DNA of 48,348 nt, taken from contig JBFMHD010000001.1 of NCBI GenBank assembly GCA_040752395.1, forward strand, positions 1 to 48,348. The letters run 5' to 3'. The notes beneath the pieces were generated by a model. The model was not told the DNA's origin. It saw only the letters and a list, made by a program, of their open reading frames with translations, and ran no database searches. The position numbers and the translations under genes were made by a program. This stretch comes from Candidatus Hydrogenedentota bacterium. GTDB lineage: Bacteria > JBFMHD01. Below, one piece after another: positions 3 to 48,348 of this stretch. Each line of letters begins with the position of its first letter. Positions within the stretch are counted from its first letter, which is position 1.

Positions 3-113
3 ATAGCAAACGCGATATATCATCCGGTAGAGGTTCGATTACGTAGAGCTCCGTTCACGCCGGAGCGGGTTTTGAATGCTATTAGCAACAAAAATTCAAA
101 GCGGTCGTCATGA
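3..113 (+). CDS. 3' end (partial, cut by window edge) of a molybdopterin-dependent oxidoreductase large subunit (xanthine dehydrogenase / aldehyde oxidase family)
   Basis: Frame 3 reads IANAIYHPVEVRLRRAPFTPERVLNAISNKNSKRSS followed by TGA at 111-113. The IANAI...R.R..P.TPE.VL pattern resembles the conserved C-terminal tail of this family. Only 36 aa are visible. Confidence 0.4.
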   Translation: MANAIYHPVEVRLRRAPFTPERVLNAISNKNSKRSS

Positions 114-219
114 GCGCAGGTTGCGCTCTACACAAAGGATGAAAAACAGGTTTTTCCCTTACTTTTAACTTTTAACTTTCTAGCTGATATTATTAGAGTT
201 ACAACGTTTTTCAGAGGAG
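109..219 (+). repeat. Mosaic intergenic repeat, copy A (hairpin module H + ACTTTTA heptamer words + 35-nt P module)
   Basis: It contains GAGCGCaggttGCGCTC followed by TACACAAAGGATGAAAAAC, then ACTTTTA ACTTTTA ACTTTC (161-180). It ends with TGATATTATTAGAGTTACAACGTTTTTCAGAGGAG (185-219), which stops 4 nt before the ATG at 224. The same modules recur at the other copies listed. Confidence 0.85.
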
Positions 220-2417: not shown

Positions 2418-3869
2418 TTATTCTTCGAAGTGTTTGGCTTTGTCAACAAATATAGATTTCTTTAATAAATAGAAGATTTGACGTAAGGTTAATTTATGTG
2501 GATAGATTTTTGTCTTAATAAGATAAATTTTTGTTAATAAATAAGCATAAAAGAATAGCTTGTTTACTGGTAGATAAATAAGAAATTTATAGCAGATACT
2601 TTTTAACCACGGCTGCCAGACTATAACAGTCCCTAATAATGACAGATTCTGCTGTATATCTTTTTGTTTTTCAGTAAAGCAACTTAATGGTGAACGGGTC
2701 TGATATGAAAAATGTAGTTTGGTATAATCACCTTCAAAATACCCCTTCTCTTTACAATACTCGCCAAGCTCAGTTTTAGGATATGGGTATAGCACAGGGA
2801 ATTCTGCAAATGTTACCTTACATTCTACATTCAAATCTATGGTTTGTTTATCATCCTTAATTGAACTATAAGGTAACCCCAGTATACTATTACAAAAGGT
2901 TTTAATATTATATTTTTCACATAGTCTGAACGCATTTTTAATCTGTTCATCAGTCATATTTCTTTTTAGAAGGTCGTTTCGTAGATGTGGCGTTCCTGAT
3001 TCTATCGACATATTGATTGAATAACAGCCAGCTATCTTCAAAAGTTTAATTATATCTTCATTTAATATATCGCATCGTGAAGCACAATGAAATGGGATTT
3101 TGACTCTCGCTTGATATTCTTTACAAAATTTTTCAAGCCATACATCATTAGGAAAAGTAAATATATCATCATAAAATTTAATCAGATGTATAGGGTATTT
3201 TGCTTTGACTGAGAGAATCTGTTCTATCGCATACTCAACACTTGTTCTTCGAACAGGTTTCATTTGAAAATTATAGAGTTTTCTGTATGAGTGATTGAAA
3301 CAATACGTACAGGGATACGGACATCCCCGGGAAAACATAAAACTTTTAACCGGGAACCAGCTCATCTCAGTATTTTTATAAAAAATGTCTCTATCTGGGA
3401 AGGGGAGTGAATCGAGGTCTTCAATTAAGGGGCGCAATTTATTGATACCCTTTTCTGTAACAATATTATCAAGAGATGAAAAATCTCTCCCATTGGCAAT
3501 ACAATCAAGAAATTCGTTAAAAAAATTATCTCCCTCGGCCCGACAAAAAGCACTCATATTACTTTTATTAAAATCTTCAGGAAAAAAGGTAGGATGAGCA
3601 CCACCAAGAATAGAAACTATATTAAAATGTTTGTTAACTAATTTTTGAAACTCAAAATAAAACTTATGTTCACCTGTGGATGCGCTGTAGCACAGGATGT
3701 CGGGTTTGAGCTTTTTAATCTTATCTAAGACATTCTCACGTGTAAGGATACCAAGATATGTTGAATGTCCCTTTTTCTTTGCTATGGCTGATAATTGCAT
3801 TATCCCTTGCGGGTCAATAAAATCAATATGATTCACAATAAATAAAATGTTCAGCTTATCTATCATCAT
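2418..3869 (-). CDS. B12-binding domain radical SAM enzyme (class B)
   Basis: The N-terminal Rossmann-like B12-binding region reads ILFIVNHIDFIDPQGIMQLSAIAKKKGH. The CxxxCxxC radical SAM motif is present in FSRGCPYPCTYCFNH. The track start at 3899 is a TTG inside the upstream repeat, so I place the start at the ATG at 3869 (MMIDKLN). Confidence 0.85.
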   Translation of the reverse strand: MMIDKLNILFIVNHIDFIDPQGIMQLSAIAKKKGHSTYLGILTRENVLDKIKKLKPDILCYSASTGEHKFYFEFQKLVNKHFNIVSILGGAHPTFFPEDFNKSNMSAFCRAEGDNFFNEFLDCIANGRDFSSLDNIVTEKGINKLRPLIEDLDSLPFPDRDIFYKNTEMSWFPVKSFMFSRGCPYPCTYCFNHSYRKLYNFQMKPVRRTSVEYAIEQILSVKAKYPIHLIKFYDDIFTFPNDVWLEKFCKEYQARVKIPFHCASRCDILNEDIIKLLKIAGCYSINMSIESGTPHLRNDLLKRNMTDEQIKNAFRLCEKYNIKTFCNSILGLPYSSIKDDKQTIDLNVECKVTFAEFPVLYPYPKTELGEYCKEKGYFEGDYTKLHFSYQTRSPLSCFTEKQKDIQQNLSLLGTVIVWQPWLKSICYKFLIYLPVNKLFFYAYLLTKIYLIKTKIYPHKLTLRQIFYLLKKSIFVDKAKHFEE

Positions 3870-3876
3870 TACTAAT

Positions 3877-4198
3877 GAGGCAGTGAGGCAGTGCCTCAAG
3901 CCACTCTACCGTTTGATAACTGCTATGCCATATAGAAGCAGCAAATTATCTCCGTAAGAAGCGTAATTTTGTTGACAAAGAGACGGATGAGGCAGTGCCT
4001 CAACCCATTCTACCATCAGCTAGCTGCTATGCCATACTGAAAGAGCGAATTCTCCACGAAAAAAAGCGAAAAATTCTTTACAAAGAGACGGATGAGGCAG
4101 TGCCTCAAGCCACTCTGCCATTATATGGCTGATATTCCATAATATGTCAGCAAATTATCTATGCAAAAAGCGTAGATAATTTAAATATATTATTTATA
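3877..4198. repeat. Tandem array of three ~105-bp units, each headed by the palindrome GAGGCAgTGCCTC
   Basis: Units start at 3885, 3989 and 4094, giving periods of 104 and 105 bp. They share GAGGCAGTGCCTCAA(G/C)CCA(C/T)TCT, then CAGCAAATTATCT / AAGCGTA, then CAAAGAGACGGAT. An extra partial GAGGCAGT lies at 3877-3884. Confidence 0.85.
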
Positions 4199-4282: not shown

Positions 4283-4519
4283 CTCCTCTGAAAAACGCTG
4301 TAACTCTAATAATTCGGGGTACAGGCTACGGGCTACGGACTACAGCCGGCTGGAGACAAAAGCCCAAAAGCCTGCTGATAAGTCTTGAGTCATGAGTCCT
4401 GTTTTGACTCACGACTCACGACTCTTTTTATATCATCCTTAGTTTTTCATATATTGTGTAGAGCGCAAACCGCGCTCATGTTTGACTCCTTTGAAAAACT
4501 TCGCGACCCTAATAATTTT
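4283..4519 (-). repeat. Mosaic intergenic repeat, copy B (full-length, inverted orientation)
   Basis: The reverse complement aligns module by module with copy G (38693-38984). The shared modules are the P-like TTTTTCAAAGGAGTC, CATGAGCGCGGTTTGCGCTCTACACAA, the GAGTC/GACTC word hairpin, the GGCT/GTAGCC heptamers with CAGCCGGCTG, and the P core (4283-4313). Confidence 0.9.
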
Positions 4520-4644
4520 ACGAAGTAAGAAGTATCAGAAAAATGCGGCATGCTGAAATCTGTGGTCAACAGCCAGAATTTCGCTATTTTTATAGCTGGA
4601 TTGTGAATTTATAAATCTTGACTGGAATTTATTGCCAAGGGGTG

Positions 4645-5052
4645 TTATAATCCTATAAAACCTTGATTTTTTAGTTTATTCAATACAAAAACTTTAACTT
4701 TTTCAGCGATTTCAATCGCCTGTCTGCTCTCATCTAAAGATGGAAATAATATCTCCGACGGATACCGTAATTCAATAGCATATTCAGTCAGTCTGTCAGC
4801 TTTTATTTGATACAGATTATTAAAATCGGGTTCGATAGCTGTACATAGTTCTATCAATTCAGTAATATCATGCGTTTTTCTTATCTCCTTTTTATTGAAA
4901 ATAATAAAAGCTTTTAAATATTTTTCCACACATTGTTGCATATGAAAACACACTGCATCTGTTGCAGGTGATACTGTGGCAAACTCATCTTTGCCAGTTT
5001 TTAAGTCACTTTCTGCTTTCATAATCCAGTATTGTGTACCACGGCCATTCAT
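4645..5052 (-). CDS. HEPN domain protein (putative toxin of a HEPN/MNT pair)
   Basis: This 135-aa helical protein (ESDLKTGKDEF...QQCVEKYLKAFI...IRKTHDITELIELC...AIELRYP) shows the typical stand-alone HEPN pattern. It overlaps the upstream MNT gene by 4 bp. Confidence 0.8.
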   Translation of the reverse strand: MNGRGTQYWIMKAESDLKTGKDEFATVSPATDAVCFHMQQCVEKYLKAFIIFNKKEIRKTHDITELIELCTAIEPDFNNLYQIKADRLTEYAIELRYPSEILFPSLDESRQAIEIAEKVKVFVLNKLKNQGFIGL

Positions 5053-5363
5053 ACCTGCACACCATATTTGAGAGCATAATAAGTGATAAATCCTGTATCC
5101 TCAGCTCGTTCTTCAATTTGTTTAACCGAATTGATTACAATGTCATTGGGAATCCTTAATTTTGCAAGACGTCTTTTAATTTTTAAAATAATGGACCACT
5201 TCTCATCCCTGTTAAGTTCCTTGTTTATTATTACCAAAAAGTCCCAATCACTCTTATTATCTGCTCTGCCGTTAACCTGGCTCCCAAAAAGATAAATTTT
5301 AACAGGTTCAATCCCCTCTCTTTTAAACTCCTCTCTAATTATTTCAATTGCTGTTTCTTTCAT
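5049..5363 (-). CDS. Minimal nucleotidyltransferase (MNT, putative antitoxin partner of HEPN)
   Basis: IYLFGSQVNGRADNKSDWDFLVI matches the GS-x9-11-DxD motif of MNT proteins. The protein is 104 aa and lies in the classic MNT-then-HEPN order with a 4-bp overlap. Confidence 0.85.
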   Translation of the reverse strand: MKETAIEIIREEFKREGIEPVKIYLFGSQVNGRADNKSDWDFLVIINKELNRDEKWSIILKIKRRLAKLRIPNDIVINSVKQIEERAEDTGFITYYALKYGVQV

Positions 5364-5433: not shown

Positions 5434-5605
5434 CACCCCTGAAAAACATTGTAACTCAAATAATTCGGGCTACAGGCTACAGGCTACGGACTACAGCCGG
5501 CTGGAGACAAAAGCCCGGAGCCTGAAGCCAACATATCATCCTTAGTTTTTCATATATTGTGTAGAGCGCAACTCGCGATTATGTTGACTCCTCTTGAAAA
5601 AGTTT
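5434..5605 (-). repeat. Mosaic intergenic repeat, copy C (inverted orientation; lacks the GAGTC word hairpin; hairpin H degenerate)
   Basis: Its order is CCCCTGAAAAACATTGTAACTCAAATAATTC, then GGCTACA GGCTACA GGCTACG GACTACA GCCGGCTGGAGAC, then CATATATTGTGTAGAGCGCAACTCGCGATT, then GACTCCTCTTGAAAAAG. This is collinear with copy B. Confidence 0.85.
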
Positions 5606-5630
5606 GGAGTTCGGAGCGAGGAGAGTATAA

Positions 5631-6881: not shown

Positions 6882-6997
6882 AAAAAACAGAACCACCTTT
6901 TTTATATATTATCTTTTTTTATTATAATTACAACTAATTTTTTTCTTGCTTAAATTGTTATTTTAGTTAAACTCTAACCACTTAAGTATATTGTTTT

Positions 6998-7053
6998 ATC
7001 TTGCTTCTTGCTTCTACTTGATATTATTATAGTTACAACGTTTTTCAGAGGAG
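6998..7053 (+). repeat. Mosaic repeat, copy D (TTGCTTC word block + P module only)
   Basis: It reads ATC TTGCTTC TTGCTTC TACT followed by TGATATTATTATAGTTACAACGTTTTTCAGAGGAG (7019-7053). This differs from copy A at 1 of 35 positions and lies 8 nt before the ATG at 7062. Confidence 0.9.
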
Positions 7054-7061
7054 GTAGTAAA

Positions 7062-7280
7062 ATGATTAAGGTAGTATTAAAACTTTCGTTCCCTGCGAAA
7101 CTGGTAAAGAAACCAGTAATGCACACTTTAGTAAAAAAGATGGATGTAAAGCCTAATATTTTGGCGGCGAGTGTGACTCCGCGTGGCGGCAAAGTCACAC
7201 TGGAGATTACAGGCAGAAAATCCAATGTAAAAAGAGCAGTAACATATCTTAAAAAGATAGGGGTTAAAGTTTTAGAATAA
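7062..7280 (+). CDS. Stand-alone NIL domain protein (sulfur/methionine-related ferredoxin-like domain)
   Basis: The 72-aa sequence MIKVVLKLSFPAKLVKKPVMHTLVKKMDVKPNILAASVTPRGGKVTLEITG...YLKKIGVKVLE matches the NIL domain pattern. The track ORF's 18 N-terminal codons (from 7008) read through the P repeat and are discarded. The true ATG has the GGAGG Shine-Dalgarno. Confidence 0.75.
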   Translation: MIKVVLKLSFPAKLVKKPVMHTLVKKMDVKPNILAASVTPRGGKVTLEITGRKSNVKRAVTYLKKIGVKVLE

Positions 7281-20565: not shown

Positions 20566-20847
20566 ATAAATAATTAGTATTCTGCAATTCAGACAGTAGT
20601 CCAAAGTCCAGTGTCTAAATCACAGATACTTAAGAATATAATATTAAGTGAGAGAATAGAGGTCAAGCCCAAATGAGGCTAAAATTTACAATGAACATCG
20701 CTTTAAAAACTACTTTTTCAGAACTTTTCCAATCACAGAAATTTAATACTTGACTATAAATAAAATTTACAATTTAAATCAATATTCAGTAAGGTCGCGA
20801 TTACACAAGGACATACGTGTTAAAACCATAATTTTAATGGAAAGACA

Positions 20848-21657
20848 ATGGATGATAAGAGATTACAAGAGATAGCTCATAAGGTAAGAAAGTATGTTAT
20901 TGAGATGACATTTAATGCTGGTAGTGGTCATCCTGGTGGGTCATTATCAGCTACAGATGTATTGACGTTTTTATATTTTGAAGAAATGAACGTTGATCCA
21001 GCTAGTCCGGATTATCCGGAACGTGATAGATTTGTGTTATGTAAGGGTCATTCAGCGCCGGCGCTTTATGCTGTGCTTGCTTTAAAGGGGTTTTTTCCTG
21101 AAGAAGAATTAAAGACTTTAAGAAAACTTGGATCCCGCTTACAGGGGCATCCAGAGAGAACCCTGCCTGGTATAGAAGTTGGTACAGGCTCTCTTGGTCA
21201 GGGATTATCGATTGCGCTTGGGATAGCTTTGGCTGCACGGCTTGATAAACGGCAGAGCAGGGTGTATGCTTTAATGGGAGATGGTGAACAGCAGGAGGGC
21301 CAGGTCTGGGAAGCAGCGATGGCTTGCGCACATTATAAAGTCTCGAATCTTTGTGCTATCGTTGATAAAAACAGGTTACAGATAGATGGTTCTACTGATG
21401 AAGTGATGGACATAGAACCACTTGATGAAAAATATAAAGCATTTGGCTGGAACGTTTTAAAAATAGATGGTCATTCTTTTACCGAAATAAGGAAAGCATT
21501 TAATAGGGCAAGAGAATGTAAAGAGTGCCCCACGTTAATAATTGCTAATACAATCAAGGGGAAAGGGGTTTCATTTATGGAGAATTCGCTTGAATTTCAT
21601 GGAAGGGCACTAACAGAGGATGAACTAAAAAGAGCGCTTAATGAGTTGTTGAAATGA
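20848..21657 (+). CDS. tkt: Transketolase, N-terminal (TPP-binding) subunit
   Basis: SGHPGGSLS, CKGHSAPALY and GDGEQQEGQVWEA are present. The length is 269 aa, typical of the split form. Confidence 0.9.
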   Translation: MDDKRLQEIAHKVRKYVIEMTFNAGSGHPGGSLSATDVLTFLYFEEMNVDPASPDYPERDRFVLCKGHSAPALYAVLALKGFFPEEELKTLRKLGSRLQGHPERTLPGIEVGTGSLGQGLSIALGIALAARLDKRQSRVYALMGDGEQQEGQVWEAAMACAHYKVSNLCAIVDKNRLQIDGSTDEVMDIEPLDEKYKAFGWNVLKIDGHSFTEIRKAFNRARECKECPTLIIANTIKGKGVSFMENSLEFHGRALTEDELKRALNELLK

Positions 21658-21829
21658 GTCTCCAGGAGCGCGGGTTGCGCTCTACACTATTGTGTTATTG
21701 GGTTATTGGGTTATTGGGTTATTGCGTTCTTGCGCTCTACATAACGTATGAAAAACTAGATGTTTGTTTATCTTGCCTCTTGCTTCTACTTGATATTATT
21801 AGAGTTAGAATGTTTTTCAGAGGAGAACA
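21658..21829 (+). repeat. Mosaic intergenic repeat, copy E, inserted between the two transketolase genes
   Basis: It starts with GAGCGCgggttGCGCTCTACAC. It then has five tandem 8-bp units over 21692-21731: three perfect GGGTTATT (21700-21723) flanked by degenerate GTGTTATT and GCGTTCTT. After that come a duplicated TTGCGCTCTACATAACGTATGAAAAAC and CTTGCCTCTTGCTTCTACT. The P module (21791-25) has 2 of 35 differences from copy A and lies 4 nt before the ATG at 21830. Confidence 0.9.
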
Positions 21830-22780
21830 ATGGTAGAGAAGATAGCTACGCGTGAAACTTATGGTAAAGTATTAGCTGAGCTTGGAGAGACTCATCCTGA
21901 GATAGTTGTGCTTGATGCTGATCTCTCAGGTTCTACTAAAACATCTGTGTTTGCAAAAAAGTTTCCTGATAGATTTTTTCAGATGGGTATAGCTGAAGCT
22001 AATATGATGTGTGTAGCAGCTGGTTTAGCGTTATCAGGGAAGATAGCATTTGTCTCTTCTTTTGCTTTATTTGCAACAGGGAGGGTCTGGGAACAGATAC
22101 GAAATACAATAGCCTATTCCAATACTAATGTTCGGATAGCAGCGAGTCATGCTGGTGTCTCTGTAGGCGCAGATGGTGCGAGTCATCAGTCTATTGAAGA
22201 TATAGCTATTATGAGAGCTATACCGCATATGACAGTGGTTGTGCCTGCGGATGCTGTTGAAACAGAGAAAGTTATAAGAGCATCACTTGAGTGGTATGGA
22301 CCTATGTATATTCGTCTCGGTAGAGCAAAGATGCCTGTTATAATTGATAAGGATGCTCCTTTTGAACTCGGCAAAGCTTATTTTTTAAGAAGAGGCAAGG
22401 ATGCTACAATTATCGCCTGTGGTCAGATGGTTTATGAAAGTATACAGGCTGCTATTAAATTAGAGGAAGAAGGCATCAATGTTTCTGTTGTAAATATGTC
22501 AACAGTTAAACCGCTTGATGTTGAGAGTTTAAAGATAGCTTATAAAGAGACAGGTGCTATAGTAACAGCTGAAGAGCATTCTGTGATTGGTGGTTTAGGC
22601 AGTGCTGTAGCAGAAGAAGTAGTGAGGCGATTTTCCTGCCCCGTTGAGATGATAGGCATAAAAGATGTATTCGGCCAATCAGGTGAGCCTGAAGAACTAT
22701 TTGAGGTTTTTTCATTAAAGCCAAGACATATAGCAGATGCAGTTAAAAAGGTTATACAACGAAAACGAAAGAAAGTATGA
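21830..22780 (+). CDS. tkt: Transketolase, C-terminal (pyrimidine-binding) subunit
   Basis: FFQMGIAEANMM, HAGVSVGADGASHQSIEDIA and the C-terminal domain are present. The length is 316 aa. Confidence 0.9.
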   Translation: MVEKIATRETYGKVLAELGETHPEIVVLDADLSGSTKTSVFAKKFPDRFFQMGIAEANMMCVAAGLALSGKIAFVSSFALFATGRVWEQIRNTIAYSNTNVRIAASHAGVSVGADGASHQSIEDIAIMRAIPHMTVVVPADAVETEKVIRASLEWYGPMYIRLGRAKMPVIIDKDAPFELGKAYFLRRGKDATIIACGQMVYESIQAAIKLEEEGINVSVVNMSTVKPLDVESLKIAYKETGAIVTAEEHSVIGGLGSAVAEEVVRRFSCPVEMIGIKDVFGQSGEPEELFEVFSLKPRHIADAVKKVIQRKRKKV

Positions 22781-23457
22781 ATGTACAGTTTTGTGATGTA
22801 AGTAAAGTTTATACAAGGGACATAACAGCGTTACATAATTTAAAAGTAAATATTAATCAAGGTGAGTTTGTTTTTGTTATCGGTCCTTCTGGAGCAGGTA
22901 AAACCACATTTTTAAGATTAATGTATCGTGATATAATACCAAGTAAAGGTCAGATTCTTGTTGATAATAAAAATATCTCACGGATGAGAGAGAGCGAGGT
23001 GCCTTATCTGAGACGCAGGATGGGAATAATATTTCAGGATTTTAAACTACTATATACCAAAACTGTTTTTGAGAACGTTGCGTTTGCTTTGAAAATACTT
23101 GGCAAAGAAGCTAATGAGGTTAAACAGCGGACGTATAGCGCACTTGAGTTTGTAAAATTGCAGGATAAACGTAATTTAAATCCATATAAATTATCAGGCG
23201 GCGAACAGCAACGAACAGCAATCGCAAGGGCTATTGTTAATCAGCCTGAACTAATACTTGCAGATGAACCAACAGGTAATCTTGATGACTCAATAGCAAG
23301 AGAGATATTTGAGTTATTTTTATATTTAAATAGCAAAAATACAACGGTTATTATTGCTACTCATAATATTGCTATTGCAAAAGCGATGAATACACGTGTG
23401 ATTTATCTAAAACAGGGTGAACTCATTGCTGATGGTTTTGCAGAGGACGTATTATGA
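22777..23457 (+). CDS. ftsE: Cell division ABC transporter ATP-binding protein FtsE
   Basis: Walker A GPSGAGKTT, signature LSGGEQQR and Walker B LILADEPT are present. It overlaps ftsX by 4 bp. Confidence 0.9.
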   Translation: MNVQFCDVSKVYTRDITALHNLKVNINQGEFVFVIGPSGAGKTTFLRLMYRDIIPSKGQILVDNKNISRMRESEVPYLRRRMGIIFQDFKLLYTKTVFENVAFALKILGKEANEVKQRTYSALEFVKLQDKRNLNPYKLSGGEQQRTAIARAIVNQPELILADEPTGNLDDSIAREIFELFLYLNSKNTTVIIATHNIAIAKAMNTRVIYLKQGELIADGFAEDVL

Positions 23458-25488: not shown

Positions 25489-25535
25489 CTACGAAGAAAG
25501 TATAAAAGGTAGAAGACAGAAGACAGGAGTGAAAA

Positions 25536-26942
25536 ATGAGAAGATTTTCTTTAGGCTTGTTGATTGTTATATTGATAGTCTCATCTGTTAGTATCTCGGG
25601 TATATCACAGAATACAAGTAATGAAATTTTGAATAAGCTTGGTCTTATACCTGAGGTAATAAAAATCATTGAGGATGATTTTGTAACCGGGGATGCTATT
25701 GATAAAAAGGAATTGATTTATGGTGCGTTGAGAGGAATACTTTCTACTCTTGAAGACCCGCACACAAGATTTGTGCCACCTCAAGATTTTATTGAAATGA
25801 AAGAAGAGACAAGCGGAGAGTTTGGGGGGCTCGGGATGTACATCGGTATAGAAGATGGTATCTTGACTGTAATTTCTCCGATTGATGGGACACCGGCTTT
25901 TAAAGCAGGTGTAAAAGCAAAAGATAAAATAACAAAGATTGATGATGTCTCCACTGAAGGGATAGATGTACATCAAGCAGTCTCAAAATTAAAAGGTAAA
26001 CCAGGAACAAAGGTAACTATAACCATTTTAAGACGAGGTATAGAAAAGGAATTTGATCTAACTATTACAAGAGATATTATTAAGATACGTAGTGTCAAAT
26101 CCATTATGTTAAAAGATGATATAGGATATATTAGGGTAAGTACGTTTAATGCGCATACACAAGATGAAATAAAAGATGCATTTAATGATTTACAGAGAAA
26201 GGGTATGAAGAAATTGGTAATTGATTTGAGATATAATGCAGGTGGGTTGTTAAAGTCTGCTGTTATGGTCTCGGATTTATTTTTAAAAAAAGGGTTGATT
26301 GTATCTACAAAAGGAAGAGCCTTTGATCAGAATGTAAATTACGAAGCACAGGATGGTGATCCGCTTGAAGAGATACCTGTTGTTGTAATAATCAATGACA
26401 GGAGTGCATCGGCATCAGAAATCGTTGCCGGTGCTTTGCAGGATAATAAGCGAGCAACCATTGTTGGTAGGCAGAGTTATGGCAAAGGCTCTGTTCAGTC
26501 CGTAAAAGGATTAAGTGATGGGTCTGCTGTATCATTAACAACAGCTGAATATTATACTCCTTCCGGAAAAAATATTAACATAGATTATTTAAAACTAAAA
26601 AAAGATAAAGAGTATGCTAAAAATAAACCCTGGGGTATAAAGCCTGATGTTATTGCAGAAAACTCGCTTGATAAAGAATTTACAGCTTTAGAACTTTTAC
26701 ACATGTACTATTTAGCTGAAACAAAAATAATATTTGAGTTTGCTAAAGAAAACACTGATTACACTGATACTGATGTTAATGAGATTATGAATAAGCTAAA
26801 GGAAAAGAATATAAATATTGAAGAGGATAGAATAAGGCTGAGTCTTATTGATGAGTTGTCAAGACGGAATGAAAACAGAGTCTATTTTGATCTGAAAGCT
26901 GATTCACAGCTTTTAACAGCTGTTAATATATTACAGAAATGA
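25536..26942 (+). CDS. ctpA: Carboxy-terminal processing protease (peptidase S41) with PDZ domain
   Basis: A PDZ region (GGLGMYIG...SPIDGTPAFKAGVKAKDKITKIDD) is present. The S41 core includes DLRYNAGG and RSASASEIVAGALQDNKRATIVG..SYGKGSVQ. Confidence 0.9.
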   Translation: MRRFSLGLLIVILIVSSVSISGISQNTSNEILNKLGLIPEVIKIIEDDFVTGDAIDKKELIYGALRGILSTLEDPHTRFVPPQDFIEMKEETSGEFGGLGMYIGIEDGILTVISPIDGTPAFKAGVKAKDKITKIDDVSTEGIDVHQAVSKLKGKPGTKVTITILRRGIEKEFDLTITRDIIKIRSVKSIMLKDDIGYIRVSTFNAHTQDEIKDAFNDLQRKGMKKLVIDLRYNAGGLLKSAVMVSDLFLKKGLIVSTKGRAFDQNVNYEAQDGDPLEEIPVVVIINDRSASASEIVAGALQDNKRATIVGRQSYGKGSVQSVKGLSDGSAVSLTTAEYYTPSGKNINIDYLKLKKDKEYAKNKPWGIKPDVIAENSLDKEFTALELLHMYYLAETKIIFEFAKENTDYTDTDVNEIMNKLKEKNINIEEDRIRLSLIDELSRRNENRVYFDLKADSQLLTAVNILQK

Positions 26943-28060: not shown

Positions 28061-28106
28061 TCAGTTATAAGTGGGTAGAAAGTTAAAAGTGAGAAGTAGC
28101 AGGATA

Positions 28107-28187
28107 GGCTCCGGATTGCAGACTACAGGCTACGGGCTTTTGGCTCCAGCCGGCTGGAGCCTCCTATGAAAAGCCTTGAATCCTGTT
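28107..28187 (-). repeat. Mosaic intergenic repeat, copy F (partial word block containing a perfect 20-bp palindrome)
   Basis: GACTACAGGCTACGGGC...GGCTCCAGCCGGCTGGAGCC...AAAAGCC..TGAATCCTGTT is collinear with 4330-4405 of copy B. The palindrome is at 28142-28161. Confidence 0.75.
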
Positions 28188-30858: not shown

Positions 30859-32472
30859 ATGAGAAATGAATTAGTGATTTCTAATGAGAGGAAGTTTGCG
30901 TTAATATTATTTATTAGTATCCTTGGTCTTGGTTTATTTGTAAGATCAGTCTTTGTTTCTTGTGATATAGAACATCTTTTAACAATAATCCCTGATGATG
31001 CATTCTATTACTTTAAAATAGCTTATAATATTATATCTAACAAGGGTTCATCATTGGATGGGATTAATCTTACTAATGGCTATCATCCTCTGTGGATGAT
31101 TATTATTTTACCGTTTGCTGATCTTATTAAAAATGAATATTTTTTTATAAGGGTCATTATTTGTATTTGTATATTTTTGAATTATATTTCAGCTTTATAT
31201 CTATATTTACTATTAAAGAAAATAGTGGATAAATGGTATATTCCATTGACAGGTCTTTTGTTATATTATTTCAACCCGCGGATAATTATAGAGAGTTTAA
31301 ACGGTCTTGAGACCAGTTTAAGTAATTTAATATTTATCTACATACTTTATTATCTTGTAGCTTATTATGAAAAGCTAAATTTAAGTAGATATAAGATAAT
31401 TTTCGGTATTTTACTTGGGCTTCTTTTTCTTTCACGAACTGATAATGTGTTTTATATTATCAGTTATTTTTTTATTTATCTGTTCTTGTCCGGGAGAGAT
31501 AAAATAAGGAATGGTTTCTTTATATTTATTGTTTTTATTGCTGTAACATTGTTATGGTTTATCTGGAATTTAATTAAATTCAGGACTATTTTTCAAAGCA
31601 GCACGTTTACTATACCCTCTCTGGACTATGTTTTGATTTTCGAGAAAAATGGTTATTTCAGCAGAATTATTTTAACAAATAGCTTAATAAGATTTACAGA
31701 CTTTTTTAATAAAAATCTTGGGCATTTTCTTGGCTTTAATCCCTTGCCGTACACTTTTTTTATGTGCATAACAATATTTTCAATTGTTGCCAGGTGGGGG
31801 GTCGCATCAGCGTTGATACGCAAATATTTAATGTGTTTAATATCCCTTTTAATTGCGGGCCTCGTTTTAATTTTTTTGCACACAGCTATAAGATGGTATC
31901 CACGCTCTTGGTATTTTAATCAATTTACAATCCTTTCTGTATTATTATTTTTATTGAGCATATCACTTTTTGATTTAAAACACATTCTGCCATCAAGCCA
32001 GCGCCTGGTTGGGTTTCTAACTGCGTCGCTTGTATTTTTAATTTTATTTTTATCATTATTAAATACGATCAATCATTTGAAAAAAGGTATTTATCCGTGG
32101 CAGGTTGAGATGTATGACGCAGCACGATGGTTAAGGATGAATGTGAAAAGAGATGAACGAGTCGGCGTATTTAATGCAGGTATAATCTCGTTTTTTTCAA
32201 AAAGAACGGTTATTAATTTAGATGGAGATATAAATAATACTGCTTATGAATCGTTCAAAGAAAAAGAGCTTTTAGAGTTTATGCATCGGATGTCAATAAC
32301 TTATTATCTTGACTATGAACCCATTATGATGAGTCTGTATAAAAAATTTTTTGGTGAGTATAGAGATAGATTAAAAGCCATACCTATACAGGTCATCGAT
32401 AGACAGGATGTAGATTGGTTGAATAGCAAGATAAAAGTATATAAGTTAGAATGGAAAGATGGAATTTTGTAA
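30859..32472 (+). CDS. Putative GT-C fold membrane glycosyltransferase (ArnT/PMT-like)
   Basis: The protein is 537 aa with >10 TM segments. A DD motif follows the first TM segment (IPDDAFYYFKIA), as in GT-C enzymes, and a soluble C-terminal domain follows. Confidence 0.5.
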   Translation: MRNELVISNERKFALILFISILGLGLFVRSVFVSCDIEHLLTIIPDDAFYYFKIAYNIISNKGSSLDGINLTNGYHPLWMIIILPFADLIKNEYFFIRVIICICIFLNYISALYLYLLLKKIVDKWYIPLTGLLLYYFNPRIIIESLNGLETSLSNLIFIYILYYLVAYYEKLNLSRYKIIFGILLGLLFLSRTDNVFYIISYFFIYLFLSGRDKIRNGFFIFIVFIAVTLLWFIWNLIKFRTIFQSSTFTIPSLDYVLIFEKNGYFSRIILTNSLIRFTDFFNKNLGHFLGFNPLPYTFFMCITIFSIVARWGVASALIRKYLMCLISLLIAGLVLIFLHTAIRWYPRSWYFNQFTILSVLLFLLSISLFDLKHILPSSQRLVGFLTASLVFLILFLSLLNTINHLKKGIYPWQVEMYDAARWLRMNVKRDERVGVFNAGIISFFSKRTVINLDGDINNTAYESFKEKELLEFMHRMSITYYLDYEPIMMSLYKKFFGEYRDRLKAIPIQVIDRQDVDWLNSKIKVYKLEWKDGIL

Positions 32473-38300: not shown

Positions 38301-38364
38301 ATTCTTTAACCAGGGTATAAGTCTTTCCAGAACCTGCTGAGGATTTGTATAAAATAAATGACAT
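35326..38364 (-). CDS. AddA-like UvrD/Rep superfamily 1 helicase with a C-terminal PD-(D/E)XK nuclease domain
   Basis: Walker A SAGSGKTYTL, DEFQDTS, GDAKQAIYRWRGG and TIHKAKGLQFP are present. The C-terminal nuclease motif is RPDRVIIY...VVIDYKTGK. Confidence 0.8.
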   Translation of the reverse strand: MSFILYKSSAGSGKTYTLVKEYIKLVVENPEKYKNILGITFTNKTANEMKEKIITTLKKLARNEDTDLLTNLKKELNIDDPDTIKSNCQKVLKNILHNYSDFAITTIDSFIYRIVKSFSLELNLPFNFEVDMNKDLLIERIVDNLIEQVTKDKYIKDIIIQFIESKLETSNTWNFEKDIMNVSEKIFDENSIESLKKIYKLSNDNFKNIINHIFSLKQTLISNIQKTAKDIDITIKDRVLGENFCKFIKKLSEINDINRIYEIILENKTIINVTQKYKDRYPKNKKFINYLKKLREDAITLNSVHKIHQTIYSLALIGKVKDLIEVYKKENNVIPISDFNQKVNEIIDKETVPFIYWKIGEKYQHYLIDEFQDTSHLQWNNLYPLIENSLGYNNFNLAVGDAKQAIYRWRGGDVNIMENNVPDLFSHLFEAKYLETNYRSRENIIEFNNFFFAKIADVIKQITPSHLDGLRELYKSASQKGTGEVGGYIRINIIEEEEKKNNIKEKILNQLVKILKEILNEKKGYSKKDIAILVRENKDGNIIAEKLFNEGIEVVSPDSLLLNHSPIIRFIISSLKYLAKKEEISLIEMRYLLPQIEPTLIHKLNSVECRGKRPLIETLEEIIKLFELSKTRDRYGYLVGLLEVVHSYSEKYNTSISGFLDWWDENKDKQSIIVPKGKDAINIMTIHKAKGLQFPIVIIPFPTWKLGLKTSGYIQNLIWVKNNKNLIKNADIDFLVNMTSKIENSYFANVYNEELKKCYIDNINLLYVAFTRAIDRLYILLENPSSKKDLVSKVIFETINNYMISEKHNEFFTRYDNILIMGSPTMKEKDIEFYQTIEIDEYIFNEWRSKLTITRKAKEIWNLESDDKKTRIDKGLIIHQILSKIILEKDIEKSIDEFILSGVIKRQEKPILLDKITKLMNIASENIKVKDWFEEGLSIKTEASILLEDKEIRPDRVIIYPDRIVVIDYKTGKESEDDLKQINEYALTLKDMGYKNIEKYLVYIEVEKIVRV

Positions 38365-38496
38365 AACAATATGATTTTATATTTATTAAAAATGTCAATT
38401 GAAATCGCAGAAAAGAGGTATTCCCTCAGTTCCTCAACCTAAACCTTAACTTTTCTTTTCCGTTATCTGTCTCCTGCTTCTTCATTCCCCCTATAA

Positions 38497-38692: not shown

Positions 38693-38984
38693 CTTTTTCA
38701 GAAACTCATCAACTTTTTCGAAGGAGTCCTCATGAGCGCGGTTTGCGCTCTACACAACGTATGAAAAACTAAAGATGATATGGAAAAGAGTCGTGAGTCA
38801 AAACAGGACTCGAGACTCAAGACTCAAGACTCAAGACTTTTCAGCAGGCTCCGGGCTTCGGGCTCCAGCTGGCTGTAGTCCGTAGCCTGTAGCCTGTCCT
38901 GATACCTCTCACTTCTTCCGTTATCTTGCCTCTTGCTTCTATTTTGATATTATTAGAGTTACAGCGTTTTTCAGAGGATGATTA
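38693..38984 (+). repeat. Mosaic intergenic repeat, copy G (full-length reference copy)
   Basis: In order: TTTTTCGAAGGAGTC; CATGAGCGCGGTTTGCGCTCTACACAACGTATGAAAAAC; GAGTCGT GAGTCAA aacagga CTCGAGA (CTCAAGA)x3. Then GGCTCCG GGCTTCG GGCTCCA GCTGGCT GTAGTCC GTAGCCT GTAGCCT, CTTGCCTCTTGCTTCT, and the P module at 38945-79. The ATG is at 38985. Confidence 0.9.
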
Positions 38985-39947
38985 ATGAAAAGTGTATTGA
39001 TTACTGGTGGCGCAGGATTTATCGGAAGCCATTTGGCTGAATTTTATTTAAAACACAAATACAAAGTCATTGTTCTTGACGATTTATCCACAGGAAGTAT
39101 TGATAATGTTATTCATCTTAAGGGAGATAGAAATTTCAGTCTTATTATTGATTCTGTATTGAAGAATAAAATAATAAATGAACTTACAAAAAAGGTTGAT
39201 ATAGTGGTCCATTTAGCAGCAGCAGTGGGCGTTAATTATATTATAGATAATCCGCTAAAATCGCTGGAGATTAATATTGAGGGTACGGATAATATATTAA
39301 AAAGCTGTAATAAATACAAAAAGAAAGTGATGATAGCCTCGAGTTCTGAGGTTTACGGGAAGAATGAAAAAGTACCGTTTAGTGAAAAAGATAGCAGTGT
39401 CATAGGACCGATAACTATCTCGCGCTGGAGTTATGCCTGTTCTAAAGCGATTGATGAGTTTTTTGCACTCGCTTACTATAGAGAAAAAAATTTACCAGTT
39501 GTCATAATGCGTTTCTTTAATACCTGTGGGCCAAGACAGACAGGCAGATATGGTATGGTTATACCAAGATTTGTTAAACAGGCATTGACTAATAAACCAA
39601 TCACTATCTATGGCGACGGTAAACAGACCAGGTGTTTCTCTCATATATATGATGTTGTTAAATATGTTTATTCGCTCTCAATTGATGATAGAGCAAATGG
39701 CGAAATCTTTAATATAGGCAGTACCGAGAGAATAAAGATCGTGGATTTAGCAAAACTTGTAGTAAAGAGGGCTAATAGTAAATCAAGAATAACTTTTGTA
39801 CCATATGAAGATGCTTTTGAAAAGGGGTTTGAGGATATGAGGCACCGGGTACCAGATATCTCAAAAATAGTAAAACTTACAGGGTTTAAACATGAGAAAA
39901 GATTAACCGATATAATTGATGACGTTATAGAGTATTATAGAAGATAG
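38985..39947 (+). CDS. NAD-dependent nucleotide-sugar epimerase/dehydratase (extended SDR; UDP-glucuronate decarboxylase-like)
   Basis: GGAGFIGSH, the catalytic YxxxK (YACSKAI), RFFNTCGPRQ and GDGKQTRCF resemble UXS/ArnA-C-type SDRs. Confidence 0.8.
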   Translation: MKSVLITGGAGFIGSHLAEFYLKHKYKVIVLDDLSTGSIDNVIHLKGDRNFSLIIDSVLKNKIINELTKKVDIVVHLAAAVGVNYIIDNPLKSLEINIEGTDNILKSCNKYKKKVMIASSSEVYGKNEKVPFSEKDSSVIGPITISRWSYACSKAIDEFFALAYYREKNLPVVIMRFFNTCGPRQTGRYGMVIPRFVKQALTNKPITIYGDGKQTRCFSHIYDVVKYVYSLSIDDRANGEIFNIGSTERIKIVDLAKLVVKRANSKSRITFVPYEDAFEKGFEDMRHRVPDISKIVKLTGFKHEKRLTDIIDDVIEYYRR

Positions 39948-39962
39948 AAGAGATAATATGTA

Positions 39963-40046
39963 GAGGCAAGATAACGAAAGAAGCAAGATTATCTTGCTTC
40001 TTGCTTCTACTTGATATTATTATAGTTACAGCGTTTTTCAGAGGAG
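39963..40046 (+). repeat. Mosaic repeat, copy H (inverted + direct CTTGCTTC word block forming a 12-bp-stem palindrome, then P module)
   Basis: AAGAAGCAAGAT t ATCTTGCTTCTT spans 39978-40002. The P module at 40012-40046 has 2 of 35 differences from copy A and lies 5 nt before the ATG at 40052. Confidence 0.9.
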
Positions 40047-40051
40047 TTGAT

Positions 40052-41332
40052 ATGCCCAAAAGATGGAAGACAGTCTCGGTTGTCGGCATGGGGTATGTGG
40101 GGTTACCATTAGCTGTTATTATTGCTAAGAAAGGTTATAAAGTATATGGGATTGACCTTGATCATACAAAGGTAAGAAAGATTAATAAGGGTATTAATTA
40201 TATCTCTGATGTAGATAATAATGATTTAAAAGAGGTTGTAAACCTGGGATTATTAAGGGCTTATGATAATTATAAACCAGTATCAAAATCTGATATTATA
40301 ATTATTGCAGTACCGACACCGATTGATAAAAATATGCAGCCTGATTTGTCCTGTGTTATCTCTGCGGCTTGTAATGTAGCTAAATATTTACGGAAAAATA
40401 CGGTGGTAGTACTTGAGAGCACAACTTTTCCAGGCACAACAGATGAGTTATTGAAACCCATATTAGAGAAGTCAGGCTTGGTTATCGGCAAAGATTTTTA
40501 TCTGGGGTTTTCGCCTGAGAGAGTGGATCCCGGTAACAAAGTCTATAAAATTGAGAATACACCCAAAATAATTAGCGGAATTACAAAAAGTTGTTTAAAA
40601 AGAATAAAAGAATTTTATGATACTATTATTGTTAAAACGATTCCTGTCTCGTCAACTAAAGTAGCTGAGATGGCCAAACTTCTTGAGAACATATATAGGA
40701 ACGTGAATATAGCACTTGTGAATGAAATAATGTTATTATGTGACAGGATGGGGATAGATATATGGGAGGTTATAGAAGCTGCTTGTACAAAACCATTTGG
40801 ATTTATGAAATTTAATCCTGGGCCTGGAGTTGGCGGGCATTGCATACCGATTGACCCGTTTTATTTATCCTACAAGGCTAAGGAACATAATTTTTTTACG
40901 AATTTTATTAATCTTTCAGCTGAGGTTAATGAAAACATCCCTTATTTTGTTGTTAATAAAATATTACGCGAGCTGGCAAAACGTGGTTTAACACCAAAGA
41001 GATCATCTGTGCTTGTTCTTGGTTTAACTTTTAAGAAGGATGTAGCGGATTTACGCCATTCACCAGCTTGTAAAATTATTGAGTTAATGTTACCTTATGG
41101 CTTTAGATTATTTATACATGACCCCTATTTTAAATCGGTATGTATAAAAGATAAAGAATTAAAAAGCGTTAATGATCCATATAACGTTGCTAATAAAGTA
41201 GATTTTATACTGATACTTACTGACCATAGTGTTTACAGATGGGATGATTTTGCAAGAAGAACAAAAGGGTTTGTATTTGATACAAGGAATGCGACAAAAA
41301 ATATAAAATCAAAAAAGATTGTTAAGTTGTAG
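40052..41332 (+). CDS. Nucleotide-sugar 6-dehydrogenase (UDP-glucose/GDP-mannose dehydrogenase family; WecC/TviB/WbpA-like)
   Basis: The N-terminal Rossmann motif VSVVGMGYVGLPLA and the catalytic Cys in GPGVGGHCIPIDP are present. The start is moved from the track's TTG at 40001, which lies inside the repeat, to the ATG at 40052 with a GGAG Shine-Dalgarno. Confidence 0.85.
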   Translation: MPKRWKTVSVVGMGYVGLPLAVIIAKKGYKVYGIDLDHTKVRKINKGINYISDVDNNDLKEVVNLGLLRAYDNYKPVSKSDIIIIAVPTPIDKNMQPDLSCVISAACNVAKYLRKNTVVVLESTTFPGTTDELLKPILEKSGLVIGKDFYLGFSPERVDPGNKVYKIENTPKIISGITKSCLKRIKEFYDTIIVKTIPVSSTKVAEMAKLLENIYRNVNIALVNEIMLLCDRMGIDIWEVIEAACTKPFGFMKFNPGPGVGGHCIPIDPFYLSYKAKEHNFFTNFINLSAEVNENIPYFVVNKILRELAKRGLTPKRSSVLVLGLTFKKDVADLRHSPACKIIELMLPYGFRLFIHDPYFKSVCIKDKELKSVNDPYNVANKVDFILILTDHSVYRWDDFARRTKGFVFDTRNATKNIKSKKIVKL

Positions 41333-48231: not shown

Positions 48232-48243
48232 TATATATAGTGA

Positions 48244-48348
48244 GGAGACAGGAGACAGAAGACAGGAGTGGAAGGCACAAAGGATATTAGGGGATGGGTC
48301 ATAGGGGATGGGGTATATTAGGGGGCGGCGGTTAGGGGTTAGGGGTCG
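48244..48348 (+). repeat. Heptamer word tract followed by a dense G-run cluster (runs to the window edge)
   Basis: GGAGACA GGAGACA GAAGACA GGAGTGG AAGGCAC spans 48244-48278. It is followed by GGGGatGGGtcataGGGGatGGGGtatattaGGGGGcGGcGGttaGGGGttaGGGG. Confidence 0.8.

Follow-up and report, generated by a model that had tools for sequence, protein, structure and literature searches.

In this study we analysed a stretch of 48,348 nucleotides (nt) from a Candidatus Hydrogenedentota bacterium (contig JBFMHD010000001.1, positions 1 to 48,348; hereafter the window), in which a near-identical 35-nt sequence recurs just before the start codons of unrelated genes. We found that this sequence, here called module B, forms the 3' end of a modular repeat family, and is not the free-standing module that the initial annotation had taken it for. 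On balance, we slightly favour the explanation that the family is a dispersed mosaic repeat whose 3' module B is a compact cassette of promoter, leader and strong Shine-Dalgarno (SD) sequence.

The 35-mer TGATATTATTAGAGTTACAACGTTTTTCAGAGGAG starts at positions 185, 7019, 21791, 38945 and 40012 of the plus strand, with 0, 1, 2, 2 and 2 mismatches, respectively. None of 100 dinucleotide-preserving shuffles gave a match (0 expected versus 5 observed), and the near-identity of five copies, as first annotated, is confirmed. A search of the window with a 20-nt core revealed two extra copies on the minus strand, at 4283-4313 and 5434-5465, neither of which adjoins a start codon, again in agreement with the first description. 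An nhmmer profile built on the seven copies found one more, the diverged copy B', at 4486-4543 (minus strand, E = 0.007), which was backed by a separate local alignment (score 36 versus a null maximum of 22). In total, the window holds seven strong copies and one diverged copy in 48 kb. All eight are intergenic and all eight are oriented toward a co-oriented downstream gene, including both strong copies on the minus strand. Among the seven strong copies, five have an ATG at a distance of 4-8 nt. The universal core of B is ATTATTAKAGTTACARYGTTTTTCAGAGGAG, 31 nt long, and flank alignment placed the 3' edge of conservation exactly at GGAG. A heptamer array is always found just 5' of the core. In four plus-strand copies the conserved block runs about 23 nt further 5' as TTATCTTGCYTCTTGCTTCTAC, which equals 2.4 copies of the heptamer TCTTGCT; the array is built of AACTTTT at the copy at 185, and of GTAGCCY at both minus-strand copies and at a copy outside the window (described below). 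Across copies, the conserved block of B measures 31-58 nt.

The five genes led by B encode an HDOD protein, a NIL-domain protein (followed by a hexapeptide transferase), a transketolase pyrimidine/C subunit, an SDR epimerase/dehydratase and a UDP-glucose/GDP-mannose dehydrogenase, and share no common functional theme. The spacers between GGAG (GGAT in the copy at 38945) and ATG are, in the order of the copies, ATAA (4 nt), GTAGTAAA (8 nt), AACA (4 nt), GATTA (5 nt) and TTGAT (5 nt). In all five open reading frames (ORFs) the Pfam domains begin about 4-18 residues from the proposed ATG, and the start codons are therefore credible. The placement of GGAG 4-8 nt before the ATG of five unrelated genes, which the initial annotation had pointed out, stands with the single GGAT variant. 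We rejected a coding N-terminal extension: only two copies of B share the reading frame of the ATG, and at the copy at 185 a TAA stop codon (221-223) comes in between. The transketolase genes provide a further line of evidence. tktN occupies 20848-21657 and tktC begins at 21830, and the gap of 172 nt between them consists of module A of the repeat, an octamer array and B. Three other bacteria that have the conserved operon (tktN-tktC(-ftsEX / -S41-TsaD)) show gaps of +12, +56 and -10 nt, and therefore the composite is a lineage-specific insertion inside the operon. The predicted SD of tktC is that of B.

To compare initiation signals, the pairing energy with the anti-SD was computed on the 21 nt upstream of 36 gene starts. 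Four of the genes led by B had energies of -13.3, -9.1, -9.1 and -8.6 kcal/mol, the four best of all 36, and the fifth, the SDR gene with the GGAT variant, reached -5.8 kcal/mol and a mid-table rank. The other genes had a median of about -3 kcal/mol (B-led genes versus the rest, Mann-Whitney p = 0.0006), and in the majority of window genes the SD is weak or absent. B is an outlier in translation-initiation signal for this host. The four strongest SDs and the anatomy of the element agree with the earlier proposal that it supplies the ribosome-binding site (RBS) and proximal leader. Elsewhere in the window, the mRNAs of three genes look leaderless, because the -10 hexamer ends 6-9 nt before the ATG and there is no SD: AddA/UvrD at 38364 (minus strand; TTGACA-16-AATCAT-6-ATG), a 537-aa ORF at 30859 (plus strand; TTGACC-18-TATAAA-6-ATG) and MNT at 5363 (minus strand), which has its own promoter (TTGACA-17-TAATGT-9-ATG).

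Upstream of the SD, the first bases of the 35-mer are exactly those of an extended -10 motif, TG-A-TATTAT (TGATATTAT), which is present in five of the eight canonical copies (seven in the window and the external one). A -35-like hexamer, TTGCYT, lies inside the heptamer array 15 nt upstream of the -10 motif, or 16 nt in the copy at 38945, for which a promoter scan called TTGCCT-16-TATTAT with TG. The promoters outside the modules in the window are of the sigma-70 type (TTGACA/TAnnnT), and the extended -10 reading thus suits the host. As judged from these motifs, the long form of B probably acts as a promoter, and transcription is predicted to start near the TTAC of GAGTTAC, giving a leader of about 25-30 nt. 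A sigma-54 promoter was rejected for want of a GG -24 element. The extended -10 motif at the start of the 35-mer and the insertion between tktN and tktC both fit the portable expression cassette that the initial annotation had envisaged.

Leader folding, with or without the 5' extension, was no better than that of shuffled sequences (z from -1.3 to +0.8), and such an unstructured leader fits an accessible RBS. The same z-scores near 0 led us to reject an anti-SD or thermometer-like leader structure. Pairing of an upstream CCTCT with the AGAGG of the SD, the one regulatory structure suggested at first, is not supported: CCUCU-AGAGG occurs in the minimum-free-energy structure of only one copy, and, with transcription from the predicted promoter, CCTCT would be located upstream of the start site.

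Taken together, these findings suggest the following mechanism. B would pack the signals needed to express whichever ORF adjoins it. The long form would provide an extended -10 promoter (TGnTATTAT), an unstructured leader (ACARCGUUUUUC) and, at its 3' edge, the SD AGAGGAG; the short form, which has no TG, probably gives only leader and SD to transcripts started upstream. The near-identity of the copies would reflect common descent by duplication or spread, probably with gene conversion between copies, and a shared trans-acting regulator would not be needed to explain it. At two polymorphic sites (position 12, G/T; position 20, A/G), all four combinations occur among the copies at 185, 7019, 38945 and 40012, which implies gene conversion or recurrent mutation. 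Selection would preserve any copy from which a gene takes its RBS. The copy at 5434-5465, which is parted from its gene by a native promoter, has a decayed SD, CAGGGGTG.

Several observations weigh against this explanation. The promoter is a motif match, and the window contains 19 occurrences of TGNTATTAT, the majority of them within genes. The -35 spacing of 15 nt in three copies is suboptimal, and the TG is missing from the external copy and from two of the canonical copies in the window, three of eight in all. At 4283, the orphan copy remains intact despite the lack of an adjacent ATG. The presumed mobility has no mechanistic support, as no terminal inverted repeats (TIRs), target-site duplications (TSDs) or transposase were found in the window. 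The tight spacing of 4-9 nt is not obviously explained by random insertion followed by selection. Finally, the census of B covers one 48-kb window and one external locus. The sharp GGAG boundary, together with the 4-9 nt spacing, calls for a preference for targets adjacent to start codons or for recombination at B, and the spacing in the absence of TIR and TSD points to an insertion or recombination mechanism worth finding.

A more far-reaching version of the same idea, which we consider unlikely, is that B is an 'expression adaptor' that multiplies across the genome; B x B recombination may be the route, letting in cassettes (for example, the HEPN-MNT pair) as well. Start codons would thereby receive a promoter, a shared leader and a strong SD, and the outcome would be a translational regulon built by a mobile element. 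If true, many genes would carry an identical initiation region, controllable by one factor, in a lineage that is mostly SD-poor or leaderless.

We also considered that B is a shared cis-regulatory leader, an idea that goes back to the initial annotation and resembles what was proposed for TAACTGA repeats in Beggiatoaceae. The U-run and the SD would be bound by an RNA-binding protein, or by a small RNA (sRNA) whose seed resembles CUCCUCUGAAAAACG, and unrelated genes would be co-regulated. The leader positions outside the SD, ACARCGTTTTTC, are identical in all copies, as this explanation would expect, and B adjoins gene starts much as TAACTGA arrays do, which lie mostly a few nt from the starts of unrelated genes (PMC4679880). 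A related motif, CTTTTTCAGAA, occurs three times in intergenic DNA versus 0.1 expected, and the SD region of FtsX, GTTTTGCAGAGGAC, matches 12 of the final 14 nt of B. However, sites of regulators normally conserve 6-20 nt, not 31-58 nt with a heptamer array and a -10 motif; B co-occurs with other modules typical of dispersed repeats; the downstream genes have no shared functional theme; and the window contains no candidate regulator or sRNA and no Rfam family. We therefore regard this explanation as improbable in its own right, but it is compatible with a mosaic repeat carrying an expression cassette and does not exclude it.

Both of the related sequences deserve a description of their own. 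CTTTTTCAGAA is found at 20713, 38521 and 38693 of the plus strand, always upstream of plus-strand genes, and TTTTCAGAAAA is a near-palindrome resembling GTTTTTCAGAGG of B; the motif could be a protein-binding site or a decayed fragment of B. The SD region of ftsX (23432-23453) is located within the 3' end of ftsE and has the sequence GGTTTTGCAGAGGAC; its distance to the ATG equals that of B. The likeness reflects either convergence on a U-rich-plus-SD initiation region or chance.

As shown by alignment of six composites, the complete repeat consists of module A, 0-2 heptamer-built hairpins, a short heptamer array and B at the 3' end. The coordinates of all modules are given in Table 1.

Table 1. 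Modules of the mosaic repeat in the window, in order of position
Feature	Position	Strand	Context
Module A, TTCAAAGCGGTCGTCATGAGCGCAGGTTGCGCTCTACACAAAGGATGAAAAAC	95..147	+	
B copy 1, 35-mer with 0 mismatches	185..219	+	AACTTTT heptamer array at 161-179 upstream; HDOD ATG at 224
B, short form, CCCGA-ATTATTAGAGTTACAGCGTTTTTCAGAGGAG	4283..4313	-	No TG; directly after GTAGCCY heptamer hairpin; no adjacent ATG
Hairpins H1 and H2 of the 4283 composite	4317..4424	-	
Module A	4430..4501	-	
B', diverged long-form B, CTTCTTACTTCGTAAAATTATTAGGGTCGCGAAGTTTTTCAAAGGAG	4486..4548	-	SD 6 nt before ATG of the 10-codon mini-ORF of module A
B, short form, degenerate (TTTGAG, CAGGGGTG)	5434..5465	-	About 70 nt upstream of MNT ATG at 5363
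Hairpin H2 of the composite with B at 5434..5465	5468..5529	-	
Module A, ATG changed to ATA, hairpin weakened	5533..5608	-	Starts about 25 nt after stop of amylase-like gene
B, long form (TCTTGCT heptamers, TGATATTAT, leader, AGAGGAG)	6996..7053	+	NIL-domain ATG at 7062
Module A, split by GTTATTGG array (period 8, 5.6 copies)	21649..21760	+	Overlaps tktN stop codon
B, long form	21768..21825	+	Intercistronic, tktN-tktC; transketolase C-terminal subunit ATG at 21830
Isolated H2-type heptamer hairpin	28103..28159	.	Upstream of TsaD; without A or B
Module A, CTTTTTCGAAGGAGTCCTCATGAGCGCGGTTTGCGCTCTACACAACGTATGAAAAACTAAAGATGATATGG	38714..38785	+	
Hairpins H1 (GAGTCNT / GACTCAA) and H2 (GGCTYCG / GTAGCCY)	38788..38897	+	Between modules A and B
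B, long form, extra T in spacer	38921..38979	+	SD variant AGAGGAT; SDR epimerase/dehydratase ATG at 38985
B, long form	39989..40046	+	UDP-glucose/GDP-mannose dehydrogenase ATG at 40052

Module A was found at five loci, with the consensus CTTTTTCAAAGGAGTC-N3-CATGAGCGCGGTTTGCGCTCTACACAAYRTATGAAAAACTAARGATGATAT, and holds the hairpin GAGCGC-N5-GCGCTC. An intrinsic terminator in this module was rejected, as there is no U-tract and scans called none. Modules also occur alone: B at 7019, in a divergent intergenic region without module A, and at 40012, and H2 at 28103-28159. Fixed end modules, variable internal units and modules that also stand alone characterise a mosaic repeat, and all three were found here. 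The whole 296-nt composite folds far better than its shuffles (z = -4.3), because of the heptamer hairpins and an 8-bp pairing of TGAAAAAC in A with GTTTTTCA in B. The octamer array GTTATTGG at 21688-21732 lies inside module A, with TTGCGCTCTACA duplicated on both sides, as if slippage or an insertion had taken place in the repeat. Module A opens with a 10-codon mini-ORF (MSAVCALHNI/V or MSAGCALHKG) at 109-141, 38747-38779 and 4442-4474 (minus strand). A B-like SD precedes it by 6-7 nt, the GAGCGC-N5-GCGCTC hairpin falls within it, and its UGA stop is located inside the conserved TGAAAAAC. This mini-ORF may be fortuitous, its ATG being lost in two of the five copies of A.

The arrangement of modules bears on another explanation, namely that B is an att-like recombination site, at which cassettes or A-hairpin modules enter by B x B recombination, leaving B on each side and thus beside the first start codon. 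In three of the five copies, the 5' end of A equals the 3' end of B, that is, CTTTTTCRAAGGAG followed 6-7 nt on by ATG, and in the 4283 composite the B-like 5' end of A extends into a recognisable diverged long-form B; composites of this kind read B-A-hairpins-B. The boundaries of conservation are sharp at GGAG, and a HEPN-MNT toxin-antitoxin pair (4645-5363, minus strand) lies between the most diverged copies, B at 5434-5465 and B' at 4486-4548, which look as hybrid sites would. On the other hand, no integrase or recombinase is encoded in the window, the genes led by B are core housekeeping genes in conserved synteny (tktC-ftsEX-S41-TsaD) and not cassettes, and GTTTTTC misfits the attC core GTTRRRY/RYYYAAC, having pyrimidines where purines are required. 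Ordinary homologous recombination could equally produce flanking repeats. An att-like site is rather doubtful, but likewise compatible with the mosaic-repeat explanation. An integron attC site was rejected outright: the pair TGAAAAAC / GTTTTTCA shows the wrong purine/pyrimidine pattern, the core genes are syntenic, and the window has no integrase. As a separate observation, the HEPN-MNT pair is flanked by direct composite copies 1151 nt apart, in which an 81-nt block is 93% identical and a 72-nt block 83%; these flanking repeats suggest that the cassette was inserted by recombination at the repeat.

We then compared the repeat with mobile and dispersed elements. Being small (31-280 nt), non-coding, multi-copy and dispersed, it shares these properties with MITEs (miniature transposable elements with inverted repeats). 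In all long-form copies of B and all composites, however, the first 30 nt scored no more than 6 against the reverse complement of the last 30, and the longest word common to left and right flanks was 3-4 nt, which is chance level. No transposase was detected among the window proteins with Pfam. With neither TIR nor TSD found, a classical MITE was rejected.

The absence of both features is the pattern of hairpin-dependent single-strand transposons, and the element could be a non-autonomous derivative of this class (a REP/REPIN mobilised by RAYT, or an IS200/IS605 PATE) with outward-facing expression signals. Repetitive extragenic palindromes (REPs), bacterial interspersed mosaic elements (BIMEs) and REPINs are mosaics of short motifs at intergenic or intercistronic sites, with G+C-rich palindromes and GTAG, and can stabilise upstream mRNA; GTAG followed by a G+C palindrome is the REP hallmark. 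The reverse strand of module A reads GTAGAGCGCAAACCGCGCT, with GTAG beside the palindrome (GTAG-AGCGC-AAACC-GCGCT; stem of 5-6 bp, n = 5 copies), and H2, built of GTAGCCY units, forms a long imperfect hairpin. The present repeat is likewise a mosaic of short motifs at intergenic and intercistronic sites. In contrast to REP and BIME, its best conserved module, B, is not palindromic, and B occurs without A or H2 at 7019 and 40012. Differences between H2 copies are not compensatory, left boundaries have no conserved target tetranucleotide, and no Y1 transposase/RAYT or TnpB is encoded in the window. We consider an origin from this transposon class very unlikely. To our knowledge, REPs are not known as donors of promoters or SDs.

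The repeat is not a member of any named family; its architecture is closest to BOX, its function to promoter-bearing MITEs and its position to TAACTGA arrays. BOX elements (boxA - n x boxB - boxC; Streptococcus pneumoniae and S. suis), whose end modules were reported to stimulate downstream expression, resemble it in having constant modules at the ends, tandem units in varying number inside, great size variation, intergenic location, predicted stem-loops when transcribed, and insertion into transcribed regions and operons (PMC3049150). In contrast, BOX has TIRs and makes TSDs, neither of which was found in this repeat, and ORFs created by BOX have no good SDs, whereas here the 3' module supplies a strong SD 4-9 nt from real starts (PMC3049150). 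Moreover, the internal units of the present repeat are heptamers of several unrelated sequences. By eye, no resemblance to the boxA, boxB, boxC or REP consensus is evident, and the likeness to both is architectural only.

Promoter-bearing MITEs include Correia (CREE/NEMIS, Neisseria), MITEAba12, BrickBuilt, QMITE1 and SonMITE_1 (PMC10969869). They too are small dispersed repeats, mostly just upstream of genes, with sigma-70-like promoters that can drive the adjacent gene (PMC10969869). They differ in carrying TIRs and, for Correia, a TA target duplication, whereas the SD that ends B is spaced from the ATG as an RBS would be. In a 2024 review of what MITEs do in prokaryotes, the supply of an RBS or SD is mentioned 0 times (PMC10969869). 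Heptamer direct repeats of TAACTGA, for which a role in translational regulation was proposed, are found in marine Beggiatoaceae, cyanobacteria and some Bacteroidetes (PMC4679880). In likeness to B, they have a forward orientation, lie a few nt upstream of the starts of unrelated genes, show heptamer periodicity, and occur where canonical RBSs are rare; in contrast to B, they are tandem arrays of one 7-mer that usually replace the RBS (PMC4679880). Here, a unique, non-repetitive block of 31-35 nt with a canonical strong SD adjoins the ATG, and the heptamer arrays (TCTTGCY, AACTTTT, GTAGCCY) lie upstream of B and do not have TAACTGA as their unit. Tandem Repeats Finder (TRF) reported many period-7 arrays in the window, none of them TAACTGA; the ATG-adjoining sequence is the non-repetitive core of B. 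In the intergenic DNA of the window, period-7 arrays have at least eight different unit sequences. A riboswitch or other known RNA was rejected, as Rfam gave 0 matches in the whole window at gathering thresholds and searches by E-value gave only chance-level ones. CRISPR was also rejected, since the copies are spaced by kilobases and form no array.

Dispersed bacterial repeats donate promoters, terminator-like hairpins, sites for integration host factor (IHF) and sRNAs. We found no family described in which an end module is a systematic RBS donor at working distance from the starts of core genes, even within a conserved operon, as it would be here. If confirmed, this would mean that a repeat family can change, in a single step, how housekeeping genes initiate transcription as well as translation; it would also explain the origin of SD-led genes in an SD-poor, partly leaderless genome, and B would constitute a natural minimal (about 45 nt) promoter-leader-RBS part.

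Outside the window, a pattern scan of genome contigs gave at least eight loci, of which seven were chance matches; among the matches listed, the true copy was the external one counted above, locus L004 (MAG210, JBFMDD010000128.1). It lies at the very end of a 2.2-kb contig of this independent metagenome-assembled genome and reads A, H2 and B-short, followed by an ATG 9 nt after GGAG. The window, too, starts and ends in repeats, and an abundant, assembly-breaking repeat family would produce such contig ends. Metagenome scans with the B pattern and the A pattern, a viral scan and a plasmid blastn search gave no match to the repeat, and a search with the transketolase C subunit found no relative closer than 63% identity. 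The host belongs to a poorly sampled diderm lineage with 33% GC, and the window is ordinary chromosomal DNA (33% GC) that encodes Lon, TamB, FtsEX, TsaD, AddAB-like nucleases and a split transketolase.

Two further features were observed beside copies of B. A 25-nt fragment at 38457-38481, TTCCGTTATCTGTCTCCTGCTTCT, copies the 5' extension and flank of B at 38945, about 460 nt upstream in the same intergenic region, and is probably the remnant of an older copy. Just upstream of B at 40012, an inverted partial TCTTGCY heptamer extension lies at 39961-40011, with 39961-40002 as the pairing partner. This region, located after the SDR gene, folds into a strong hairpin that has a T-rich tail (129-nt fold, z = -3.2), and is possibly a terminator-like structure that overlaps the -35 region of the next predicted B promoter.

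Downstream of the orphan B at 4283, three tandem units of 105 nt (about 75% matches; 3852-4172, minus strand) lie between it and the gene for a B12-binding radical SAM protein, in the 5' region of that gene. Each unit contains a conserved GAGGCAcTGCCTC hairpin and a GGCATAGCAG motif. The units had no Rfam match, and could be a tandem cis-regulatory RNA. To the eye, the first 85 positions of the window look clearly richer in G+C than the rest, and they gave no tRNA, tmRNA or Rfam match; they may represent the 3' part of a gene that the contig boundary interrupts. Lastly, a heptamer array of a different kind, (AGAAGAC/AGGAGAC)n ending in AGGAGTG, adjoins a start codon at 25511-25535, where it has the form (AGAAGAC)2-AGGAG and provides the SD for the S41 peptidase (ATG at 25536), and the motif ending in AGGAGTG appears again at the contig end, at 48243-48270.

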